DNA of 64,000 bases from Escherichia coli (GTDB lineage: Bacteria > Pseudomonadota > Gammaproteobacteria > Enterobacterales > Enterobacteriaceae), in NCBI RefSeq assembly GCF_003018115.1, contig NZ_CP027457.1; one strand, given 5' to 3'. Shown here in pieces: positions 41,297 through 44,178 of this stretch (position 1 is its first letter; every line of letters begins with the position of its first letter). The translations under genes and the position numbers were made by a program. The notes under the pieces were generated by a model. That model did no database searches. It was not told the DNA's origin and saw only the letters and a program-made list of their open reading frames with translations.

Positions 41297-41488
41297 GAAA
41301 TGTTGCCCCCAGGAGGATTCATTCTGATGGGGGCTAGTTTGGGCAATGAGTGAAATAAGGCGTAAGGTGGGCGGTTATTTTGATAAGTGATCGTCCGCTT
41401 TGTGTCAGAAGCAGAAGCGGGAGTGTCTGAGACTCTCTAAAAGTTGATGATTCACTTACAAAACCATTTTCCTGATGGATGCTTACAC

Positions 41489-41824
41489 TTACGAATGATC
41501 ATTCTGTTTAGTCTTCATGAGAAAATCCCGAATCTTTGCCAAGTTTGAATTTTCGGGGATTGAATCCATGTACGGATCACGCTCAAACACTAATTGCTCA
41601 GATTCAACGAAAGCCTGCCACTCTACTGGGTCTAGCTCAAATCCCATTGCTGTCATATCACTTTCATCTTCCCCCTCGATCCAGTGGACTAAATAAAACA
41701 ATTCATCATCAGGAGAATCATCCTCACCATCAACAATATCAACATCGGTTACAGTGATACGTAGGGTGGGATCGATTTTTGAGACATAAATTCCTAACTG
41801 TGGTATAGGGGGAATATTGTTCAT
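41489..41824 (-). CDS. Small highly acidic hypothetical protein (111 aa)
   Basis: AT-rich ORF; long Asp/Glu runs (DVDIVDGEDDSPDDELFYLVHWIEGEDESD); divergent from the DUF262 gene in the A-Q accessory hotspot. Confidence 0.55.
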   Translation of the reverse strand: MNNIPPIPQLGIYVSKIDPTLRITVTDVDIVDGEDDSPDDELFYLVHWIEGEDESDMTAMGFELDPVEWQAFVESEQLVFERDPYMDSIPENSNLAKIRDFLMKTKQNDHS

Positions 41825-42356
41825 GGAAACTCCTTTTATTGGTGTTTGCTATTTGAATAAAAATACGCCAAACAGAGTGTTAACTGTGAATATGGAAAGA
41901 ATCGTTGTAAGTACCCCACTTAGGTGTCCCATTCTATTTTAGAGGTTCTCGTGCATATGGATTATGTTATCTGAAAGTTAACTTCCGCTTCCCGTTCACA
42001 GCGAACATTCATCTTTGTAAACCCGTATGATCCGTTTTTCAAGTGGCCATTCAGATACGGATTTTCACTTCCTTGACAGTGCATGACTATGCTGCATGAA
42101 ATCGCATGATCGATTGAGGATCGTCTTTGCTCAGATCCGCCAGAACTGGCGGGCTTTTGCTCATGTCATGCATGTGCATGAAAACCACTGCATAAAGCGG
42201 GCAGGCGTGGCGGGGATACGAGCGCGCTCTGATATGAAAATCTGAACAAAAAATTACAAAATGGTATCTTTTTGTTGCTATCATCATTTTTGATGGTAAC
42301 TTAACCTTTTCAGTTTCTATATTATAAAATTCTATCCAGAAGAAGGAATTTGTTTC

Positions 42357-44138
42357 ATGGCTGAACTATTACCGCAAACAACTTCTATACAAACTATTTA
42401 TTCATGGTTTACTGAAGGTAAGATATTTGTTAATAGACGTTATCAACGAAAATTAGTTTGGACTGCAATAGAGAAACAAAAATTAATTGAATCCATTCAA
42501 AAAAAATATCCAATTCCTGCAGTTCTTCTCGCGGAAAGGGAAAATGATCCTGGCACATATGAAATAATTGATGGCCTACAAAGATTACATGCAATAATGT
42601 CTTTCATCGAAACAGGATATGAATCACTTGATGGAAAACGTTTTAATCTGGACGCTTTTCCCACAGCGAAAAATCGAGCGGATGAAGGTAAGTTTGTTGC
42701 AGTGAAAGCTGATAATCTTTTAAGTCAGCGTGAGGTTACTCAGTTATTGGATTATTCTCTTGCAATGTCCATTATGCGTAATGCGACTGAGAACGAAATA
42801 AATGATGTTTTTGATAGAATTAATACATACGGGCATAGACTTAGTGATCAAGAAAGGCGCCAGGCTGGTATACAAAATAAATTTTCAAATATGGTTAGGG
42901 ATATTGCCTGTTCTATCAGGGGGGATGTATCTGACGACATATTGCTTTTAGAGCAAATGCCGTCTATTAGCATTGATTTGCCACTAACTAAACATGGTTA
43001 CCAAATTCAGTCGGAAGAAGTATTTTGGGTAAAACATGGGATCTTACGTTCAACAGACCTTCGTGACAGTATGGATGAGCAATGCATTGCAGATATAGCA
43101 GCTTGTATTGTTGGAGGTAAGTTAATAGATCGTTCCAAAGATGCGCTTGATCAGATTTATAATAATGAAGATGAAGAGTATAGTCGTATTAGCTCTGCTA
43201 TTAATGTTTATGGTGAAGGAAAATTTGCAGAAGAGTTTAAATTCTGCATCCAGGAAATAACAAAAGTATGTAATAGTGACGGTGAAATTAAACTCAGGGA
43301 TTTAATCTTTACTAAACGTACTACAAATGCTTTCCCAGCCATATTTGCTGTGTTATTTATTGCTTTTCATGAATTACTCATTAAAGAAAATAAGAAGATT
43401 AATAATTATAAAGGTGTAAAAGACAATCTTAATAATATAGTCACTCGACTAGATACTAAAAGATCTGCTACTGGTGGGGAAGAGAGAAGAAAGAATATTA
43501 ATTCTATCATAGGCTTGATTAAAGATAACTTTATTGATAGCGCCGATAGCAGTCATATCTATAATTCTCACAATACGGTGGATATTGAGGATATTTTACG
43601 AAGATCTGAAATAGAGCTTGCAAATTATGAACTGAAACAGGGTTTGTTGATGTTAGGCGGAGAGCGAACTATTGATGATGGCATTCATGAGAAAATATTC
43701 TCCACAATTTGTGCTATTGCTAACATCGGTAAAGGTAACAAGAACGGTGTAGTTGGTAAGTTATTGCTTGGTGTAACAGATAAACCAAGTGATACAAGTA
43801 GAGTAAAAGAGCTTGATGATATAGATGCACATGTAGTTGGTGAGAGAAGTGTTGTTGGTGTTAAAAGAGAAGCTATTAAACTCGGCATATCAATGGAAGA
43901 ATATTATAGACGTTTTTGCGATGAGTTGAAAAAATCTGCTTTGAGTGAGCCTCTTAAATCACAAGTGGTGAGTTTGATTGACTATAATGACTTTTATGGT
44001 TATGGAGTTATAGTTATTACAATTCCACTTCTAGCATCTTATTCTAGTTATGATGGGGATATTTATTATCGTGCTGGCGATAATACCGTAAAAGCAACAG
44101 TTATCGAAGCAGCAGATATTGCAACACGTTTTAAATGA
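42357..44138 (+). CDS. DUF262 (ParB-like nuclease superfamily) N-terminal domain protein with uncharacterized C-terminal half; candidate anti-phage defense protein
   Basis: 593-aa AT-rich ORF; N-terminal motifs RRYQRKLVW ... IIDGLQRL ... VFDRINTYGHRLSDQE match the DUF262 pattern (xQRxxVW ... DGQQR ... FxRxN); located where P2 carries tin/old. Confidence 0.7.
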   Translation: MAELLPQTTSIQTIYSWFTEGKIFVNRRYQRKLVWTAIEKQKLIESIQKKYPIPAVLLAERENDPGTYEIIDGLQRLHAIMSFIETGYESLDGKRFNLDAFPTAKNRADEGKFVAVKADNLLSQREVTQLLDYSLAMSIMRNATENEINDVFDRINTYGHRLSDQERRQAGIQNKFSNMVRDIACSIRGDVSDDILLLEQMPSISIDLPLTKHGYQIQSEEVFWVKHGILRSTDLRDSMDEQCIADIAACIVGGKLIDRSKDALDQIYNNEDEEYSRISSAINVYGEGKFAEEFKFCIQEITKVCNSDGEIKLRDLIFTKRTTNAFPAIFAVLFIAFHELLIKENKKINNYKGVKDNLNNIVTRLDTKRSATGGEERRKNINSIIGLIKDNFIDSADSSHIYNSHNTVDIEDILRRSEIELANYELKQGLLMLGGERTIDDGIHEKIFSTICAIANIGKGNKNGVVGKLLLGVTDKPSDTSRVKELDDIDAHVVGERSVVGVKREAIKLGISMEEYYRRFCDELKKSALSEPLKSQVVSLIDYNDFYGYGVIVITIPLLASYSSYDGDIYYRAGDNTVKATVIEAADIATRFK

Positions 44139-44142
44139 AAGA

Positions 44143-44166
44143 ACGCCTGCTCAGGCAGGCGTTAAT
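44143..44166. terminator. Bidirectional terminator hairpin between the DUF262 gene and portal gene
   Basis: aacgcctgctcaggcaggcgtt perfect hairpin between convergent genes. Confidence 0.6.
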
Positions 44167-44178
44167 TATAAACAGGAA

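Follow-up and report, generated by a model that had tools for sequence, protein, structure and literature searches.

Among 5,930 prokaryotic Schlafen proteins, 1.8% are fused to a DUF262 domain, and this DUF262-Slfn type is a named architecture among the prokaryotic Schlafen (pSlfn) defence proteins (Perez Taboada et al., bioRxiv July 2025; Nat Microbiol March 2026, PMC13056530). EcoSlfn7, a DUF262-Slfn protein of Escherichia coli UC4224, lowered the plating efficiency of a broad range of phages, that of T7 by 538-fold, and phage-triggered cleavage of tRNA anticodon arms has been described for RorSlfn5, a protein of another architecture (PMC13056530). The cos-proximal interval between gpA and gpQ of P2-like phages has been defined as a defence hotspot (Rousset et al. 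2022, PMC9122126). Here we analysed a stretch of 64,000 nucleotides of E. coli (NCBI RefSeq assembly GCF_003018115.1, contig NZ_CP027457.1), referred to as the window, which carries a P2/186-like prophage with gene A at 38297-40711 (+), portal gene Q at 44179-45207 (-) and terminase gene P at 45204-46970 (-). Between genes A and Q of this prophage, adjoining cos, we found an intact open reading frame (ORF) with an ATG start (42357..44138, + strand), the product of which has 593 amino acids (aa) and is RefSeq WP_000818977.1. With a probability of roughly 0.8, the product of this gene is a three-domain anti-phage protein of the DUF262-Slfn architecture that works on its own, and the gene is cargo in the cos-adjacent hotspot of a P2/186-like prophage.

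The original prediction, made from the sequence alone, had presented the gene as an undescribed defence candidate, and on this point it was mistaken, as the exact protein is already listed as P2-hotspot system #114, 'DUF262/AlbA_2', in Table S5B of Rousset et al. 2022. System #114 has 27 occurrences, with WP_000818977 found in several of the hotspot arrangements of Table S5A, and it is not among the systems that those authors report as validated (Rousset et al. 2022, PMC9122126). A literature search for two WP accessions of the family returned no paper. The locus is an allele of a known DUF262-Schlafen single-gene defence family that is already catalogued at the P2 hotspot. The finding adds little, beyond confirming that a true cargo gene of a defence hotspot was picked out by reading the sequence alone. 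Its remaining value is mechanistic, with the trigger, the target and the role of the ParB-like NTPase being questions of the DUF262-Slfn family and not of this locus.

Upon examining the chromosome of UC4224, we observed one homologue (a single blastn hit), WP_028985442.1, which we infer to be EcoSlfn7. The gene of this 589 aa protein belongs to a P2-like prophage, in which DinI/cos and the portal gene flank it, and the protein shares 60% identity and 77% similarity with the window protein over the full length (592 aa). The full-length identity, together with the same position, indicates that the window gene is an orthologous, positionally equivalent allele of the validated defence gene, and by analogy with this relative the window allele is itself probably active in defence. 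The earlier view of the gene as a single-gene defence candidate in the cos-proximal P2 hotspot is supported in that it is listed as hotspot cargo, occurs without a conserved neighbour and has a protective relative in UC4224. Membership in the DUF262-Slfn family is close to certain, as the protein combines a Schlafen/AlbA_2 fold, an intact Ex4(E/D)xK motif and a DUF262 domain in the same polypeptide with full-length homology to the UC4224 protein.

Domain architecture of the 593 aa protein

We first consider the C-terminal half, for which no effector domain could be assigned in the original prediction. Residues ~410-593 (43584..44135, +) are assigned as a Schlafen/AlbA_2 nuclease domain with an intact Ex4ExK motif, on the basis of a Pfam family scan and of fold matches. 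For the former, an alignment of 40 homologues from Gamma- and Betaproteobacteria and cyanobacteria was used and each member was scanned, with Pfam SLFN_AlbA_2 matching 31 of the 40 members at E<=1e-3 (best 6.3e-8). For the latter, AlphaFold models match SAMD9, SLFN11, SLFN12, SLFN14 and AlbA_2 structures, the top match being the AlbA_2 domain of SAMD9 with DNA (7ksp). Furthermore, the predicted catalytic motif, E420-LANY-E425-L-K427 (43614..43637, +), and residue D475 (43779-43781, +) are invariant in the 40 homologues, and the full set of invariant C-terminal residues comprises E418, E420, E425, L426, K427, Q428, G429, N456, G458, G472 and D475. The Ex4(E/D)xK motif has been described as catalytic for SLFN11 and for prokaryotic Slfns (Perez Taboada et al., PMC13056530).

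The invariance of the full Ex4ExK motif and of D475 across very distant hosts argues for catalysis, and tRNA or RNA cleavage is, in the literature covered, the shown activity of each Slfn nuclease with a reported target. Both points count against the alternative that survives best, namely a defence protein whose AlbA_2 domain is not a tRNase and instead cuts DNA or single-stranded DNA (ssDNA), or only binds nucleic acid, in which latter case NTP depletion by the ParB-like NTPase or recruitment of a host nuclease would be the toxic activity. We regard this alternative as improbable, although it draws some weight from the long-standing annotation of AlbA_2 as a 'putative DNA-binding domain', from the crystallisation of the top structural match, SAMD9 AlbA_2, with DNA, from SLFN5 structures described as DNA/RNA-binding, and from the absence of a reported target for the DUF262-Slfn type (PMC13056530).

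Pfam, PADLOC, NCBIfam and fold searches gave no signal of a DUF1524 or HNH partner domain, in agreement with what had been read from the letters. The weak 'H...N...GKGNK' hint of such a domain, by contrast, was not borne out, as H444 is not conserved and ANIGKGNKNG corresponds to the 'ANNG...GK..GV.D' loop of AlbA_2/Schlafen domains. An HNH/His-Me finger in the C-terminal half was accordingly rejected, having neither profile nor fold support and a variable H444. A type IV restriction enzyme like GmrSD, BrxU and SspE, in which DUF262 would recognise modified phage DNA and the C-terminal half would cut or nick DNA, is suggested by the RefSeq annotation of WP_000818977.1 ('GmrSD restriction endonuclease domain-containing protein'), but the defining DUF1524 nuclease domain is absent, so that this explanation is very improbable and the name is misleading about the effector.

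The N-terminal half carries the ParB-like DUF262 domain that had been recognised from its motifs. Pfam GmrSD_N (PF03235) matches aa 16-170 (42402..42866, +) with E 1.6e-22, and the domain contains the nucleotide-pocket motifs QRxxVW (aa 30-35) and DGLQR (aa 72-76). RRYQRKLVW (aa 27-35), IIDGLQRL (aa 70-77) and VFDRINTYGHRLSDQE (aa 151-166), which had been quoted as its signature, are all present as quoted in the ORF and are invariant or nearly so in the 40 homologues, with Y29-Q-R-K-L-V-W35 and D72-G-L-Q-R76 being the invariant DUF262 motifs. This domain is followed by a middle domain (aa ~175-400; 42879..43556, +), which is mostly helical in the AlphaFold 2 model and equivalent to the C-terminal 'ParBDB' DNA-binding domain of NsnA, a component of the Menshen system.

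The top PADLOC match of the protein is Menshen NsnA (E 8.1e-31), with aa 7-383 aligned to profile positions 49-370 of 385. The PADLOC match to PD-T4-2_A is limited to aa 14-184, and a match to a type II restriction endonuclease model is likewise confined to the DUF262 part. NsnA consists of ParB-DUF262 and the helical 'ParBDB' DNA-binding domain, the latter of which is also found in SspE, GmrSD and DndB, and it is a predicted DNA sensor (PMC12065111). The NsnA match and the domain analysis of Menshen together indicate that the first ~400 residues form this two-domain, putative sensor module. Additionally, in SspE and GmrSD the DUF262 domain serves as an NTPase sensor (PMC10952713).

Position at the cos-adjacent hotspot and distribution of the family

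The A-to-Q interval, which had been put forward as the variable locus that holds tin and old, is indeed the published P2 hotspot holding these genes (Rousset et al. 2022, PMC9122126). Within it, we detect the conserved cos block of P2/186-like phages (42078..42240, +), ~150 bp of which show 85-91% identity to 45 P2-like phage records. The block aligns to the right end and nucleotides 1-13 of phage 186, where cos is annotated, and the cohesive-end sequence GGCGTGGCGGGGATACGAG starts at 42204. With cos at ~42204, the Slfn gene falls between cos and the portal gene, on the portal side; the corresponding stretch of phage 186 measures ~176 nt. In P2, tin and old lie on the gene-A side of cos. The interval from DinI to cos, called the canonical tin/old side, holds only an acidic ORF of 111 aa on the opposite strand in the window. 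In UC4224, the same cos block is found directly upstream of the Slfn gene. We also observe that in both the window (42204-44178) and UC4224 (L001 7718-9770) the portal-side Slfn cargo lies within the first ~2 kb of the left end of the packaged genome. The AT-richness noticed for this region was confirmed, with a GC fraction of 0.30-0.38 over 42200-44200 versus 0.52-0.60 in genes A, Q and P.

When examining the distribution of the gene, we find that 15 complete E. coli genomes contain it at 100% DNA identity, and 17 of 5426 at 99.9% or more, including E. coli W, KO11FL and UMNK88. The prophage of E. coli W has a left arm unlike that of the window, yet carries the identical Slfn gene, which indicates that the cargo sits in different P2-like backbones. 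As E. coli W and its derivatives are widely used, the presence of the allele there has practical relevance for phage work. The family is tight, with 58-63% identity to the query across Enterobacteria, Xanthomonas, Burkholderiales and cyanobacteria, and numbers roughly 2000 homologues. The 593 aa protein matches PHROG 26759 over its full length. A tblastn search of 50,697 GenBank phage records returned no homologue of the protein, and in the DNA search of phage records only the ~150-bp cos block was matched.

Outside of P2-like prophages, a Pluralibacter gene that is 89% identical is a lone insertion among housekeeping genes, and unrelated genes (transposases, ParDE, kinases) adjoin the family members of Achromobacter, Paraburkholderia, a cyanobacterium and one additional genome. 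A 62% identical protein, WP_063081156.1 of E. coli Ec-FL1-1X (L013 5001-6767), is encoded in the psu-int hotspot of a P4-like satellite, and together with the P2 alleles it indicates that helper-type prophages and satellites carry diverged versions of one defence gene. Across these six independent contexts (five genomes and the P4-like satellite), no conserved partner gene or antitoxin and no NsnB- or NsnC-like gene was found. Three diverged cos-adjacent alleles with ~60% mutual identity are thereby available in E. coli (W-type P2, UC4224-type P2 and P4-satellite), and their comparison could map specificity determinants.

The window allele keeps all family-invariant residues and differs at 12 near-invariant positions, at which it shares its residue with the 89% identical Pluralibacter relative, except for position 559 (L in the window, M in Pluralibacter). 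In the Slfn loop, both carry N457I and an insertion of 4 residues, and further differences from the family are D299Q, K385I, W520F and, at the position just named, Q559L. Judged by its sequence, the window allele is not decayed.

The distribution also bears on a role outside of defence, in which the gene would be a regulator or an accessory of prophage maintenance, partition or packaging, acting as a ParB-like CTPase/NTPase near cos. It is present in only 17 of the 5426 complete E. coli genomes, it occurs as a lone insertion outside prophages in other genera, it has no ParA partner, and its UC4224 orthologue has a defence phenotype. What speaks for such a role is the ParB-like fold, with a weak match to the ParB model TIGR00180 (E 0.018) that falls far below the curated cutoff (14.8 versus 58 bits), the adjacency to cos, and the finding that about a quarter of P2-like hotspots hold partition systems (Rousset et al., PMC9122126). 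Taken together, a non-defence role has very little probability, on a par with that of type IV restriction.

Proposed mechanism

For the DUF262-Slfn reading, we propose that the ParB-like DUF262 domain, with its DGLQR pocket, and the helical NsnA-type DNA-binding domain would act together as an NTP-dependent sensor or switch for an infection cue, most likely phage nucleic acid. This sensor module would license the C-terminal Schlafen/AlbA_2 nuclease (E420, E425, K427), which would cut RNA, most likely the tRNA anticodon arm, with the result that translation of the superinfecting phage would stop. By analogy with the described relatives, RNA or tRNA cleavage as the effector step is somewhat favoured, and for DNA or NTP sensing by the DUF262 module the balance is even. 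From Enterobacteria to cyanobacteria, the whole protein, sensor half included, is unusually uniform in its conservation (~60% identity), which hints at a cue that is invariant and not a protein. A more specific and doubtful proposal is that the E. coli W/Pluralibacter-type subclade, which is 60% identical to EcoSlfn7 and has an altered loop at the Slfn active site, may be a nucleic-acid-gated Schlafen, in which the ParB-DUF262/ParBDB module would bind incoming unmodified phage DNA, or DNA ends, in an NTP-dependent manner and trigger tRNA cleavage in cis. If true, such nucleic-acid gating would parallel, in a bacterium, the activation of human SLFN11 by ssDNA. The protein would then be the first pSlfn with DNA rather than a phage protein as its trigger, and also the first case in which a DUF262 sensor is shown to act through an RNase instead of a DNase.

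Several observations weigh against the DUF262-Slfn defence reading or parts of it. For the DUF262-Slfn type, no mechanism, trigger or target is given by Perez Taboada et al., who chose two candidates of the type for testing; of the eight constructs, one could not be synthesised, and EcoSlfn7 is the sole member of the type reported as protective (PMC13056530). The identification of EcoSlfn7 as WP_028985442.1 is drawn from the strain name and the single blastn hit in the UC4224 genome, and the window protein shares no more than 60% identity with the validated one, with the 4-residue insertion and N457I located in the Slfn 'ANNG' loop. For the 593 aa protein alone, the Slfn match is weak (aa 445-580, E 0.016) and lacks the motif-bearing start of the model, and the Foldseek TM-scores are modest (0.35-0.49). 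Furthermore, profile hidden Markov model (HMM) searches of the Protein Data Bank (PDB) sequences with single-protein, full-family and C-terminal profiles found no Slfn relative and returned only noise (ribosomal protein L9, D7r4, deaminases); the Schlafen link is visible solely via Pfam and structure. Finally, the DNA of T7 is unmodified, and with T7 being the best-restricted phage, the modified-DNA sensing of GmrSD and SspE is not simply transferable.

Neighbouring genes and comparison with known systems

Upstream of the Slfn gene, we find a ribosome-binding site, AAGGA, at 42343-42347 (+), read from the sequence 9 nt 5' of the ATG, and a sigma-70-like promoter candidate, TTAACC-18-TAAAAT (42301..42330, +), which has 9 of 12 matches in a consensus scan and is weak, the count of such sites being no higher than in shuffles. 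Downstream, a perfect 9-bp GC-rich hairpin (44142..44163) is located between the convergent Slfn and portal genes (dG -16.7 kcal/mol, z -4.2). It had been described as a perfect bidirectional terminator, of which the perfect hairpin stands, and the bidirectionality is only half supported because the T-rich tail is found solely on the minus-strand (portal) side. Another hairpin, at 42136-42153, was considered as the t95b terminator of phage 186 and dropped, as the coordinates do not correspond.

The gene-A-side border of the hotspot is formed by a 62-aa ORF and a DinI-like gene (40864..41296, +), a Tum-like module with the layout of p95-LexA-tum in phage 186. The DinI-like character of this left neighbour, also noted earlier, is confirmed by NCBIfam DinI (E 1.4e-10) and PHROG 189 (E 1.5e-30). 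A perfect LexA box, CTGTAAATATAAACAG, is found at 40806-40821 (+), 43 nt upstream of the pair, and it is the sole one in the window. As it mirrors the annotated SOS promoter p95/LexA/tum of phage 186, the DinI-like module is probably an SOS-controlled antirepressor operon.

Between the DinI-like gene and cos, the acidic 111-aa ORF (WP_001059831; 41489..41824, -) belongs to PHROG 17127, of unknown function, and is not matched by any Pfam, PADLOC or NCBIfam model. In Rousset Table S5A it is found next to many unrelated cargo genes, which marks it as a semi-conserved backbone gene outside the Slfn unit. With many unrelated cargo partners and no family match, it was rejected as a part of the Slfn system or as an anti-defence gene. 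Its strong negative charge would, as a speculation, be compatible with a DNA mimic.

Elsewhere in the prophage, the integrase (33829-34868, -) is split into ORFs of 175 and 174 aa, whereas the closest complete genomes encode an intact protein of 346 aa and their match is 1 nt longer, which points to a frameshift by a 1-nt deletion; either the prophage is locked in or the sequence has an error here. The end of the prophage, just beyond the integrase, holds a 348-aa ORF (32793-33839, -) that has a hydrophobic N-terminus and is annotated as hypothetical in relatives; its sole match is a weak one to the PADLOC '2TM effector' (E 2e-4), and it may be a second cargo gene. Gene A is directly preceded by the gene of an orphan Dam-like DNA adenine methyltransferase (37383-38300, +; PADLOC oMTase, E 1e-110), which may modify prophage or host DNA and could thus be relevant to the DNA-sensing model of the DUF262 module. 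The prophage of E. coli W with the identical Slfn gene has, next to the CI repressor, a P-loop NTPase of the KAP family at the place taken by the integrase in the window (L002 1-12), and this CI-adjacent site may be another variable cargo site. KAP NTPases have recently been reported as defence proteins (PMC12632615). Upstream of the prophage are tRNA-Met (24804-24879), a YpjCB family gene (25631-26980) and an AIDA-I/Ag43-like autotransporter adhesin of 1571 aa (27787-32502).

Among the closest described systems, EcoSlfn7 of UC4224 shares with the window protein the three-domain architecture, a nearly equal length (589 versus 593 aa), the order DinI - cos - gene - portal Q, and the DGLQR and Ex4ExK motifs, whereas 40% of residues differ, and the loop insertion and N457I, D299Q, K385I, W520F and Q559L are on the window side. 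WP_063081156.1, from the tables of Rousset 2022, has 62% identity over the full length, the same architecture and a comparable setting as cargo of a cos-type hotspot between psu and int, but its carrier is a P4 satellite and not a helper-type prophage. RorSlfn5 and the other members of pSlfn1-55 likewise provide single-gene defence through a Slfn core with Ex4(E/D)xK fused to a presumed sensor. In RorSlfn5, however, the sensor is an Ig-like domain at the C-terminus, to which the T5 tail assembly chaperone binds, whereas in the window protein the presumed sensor is an N-terminal ParB-DUF262 and helical DNA-binding module and the nuclease is C-terminal.

Menshen NsnA matches aa 7-383 of the window protein with its ParB-DUF262 and ParBDB domains, but no NsnB ABC-ATPase or NsnC effector adjoins the window gene, and the Schlafen effector is fused in cis. 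Membership in Menshen (NsnABC) or PD-T4-2 was rejected because the partner genes are missing, and PD-T4-2_A is moreover not matched over its full length. GmrSD, BrxU and SspE share the N-terminal DUF262 NTPase-like domain, a DGxQR pocket and the helical domain next to it, with structural matches to BrxU and SspE, and they differ in that the window protein has Schlafen/AlbA_2 in place of the DUF1524 His-Me finger and DGLQR instead of DGQQR. Finally, although the AlbA_2 tRNases of human SLFN11, SLFN12, SLFN14 and SAMD9 are only ~10-20% identical to the window protein, in which one AlbA_2 lobe is combined with a presumed sensor that is ParB-like and not of the helicase or STAND kind, they have in common with it the nuclease fold, an acidic motif of the Ex4ExK type and the fusion to a nucleic-acid-sensing module.

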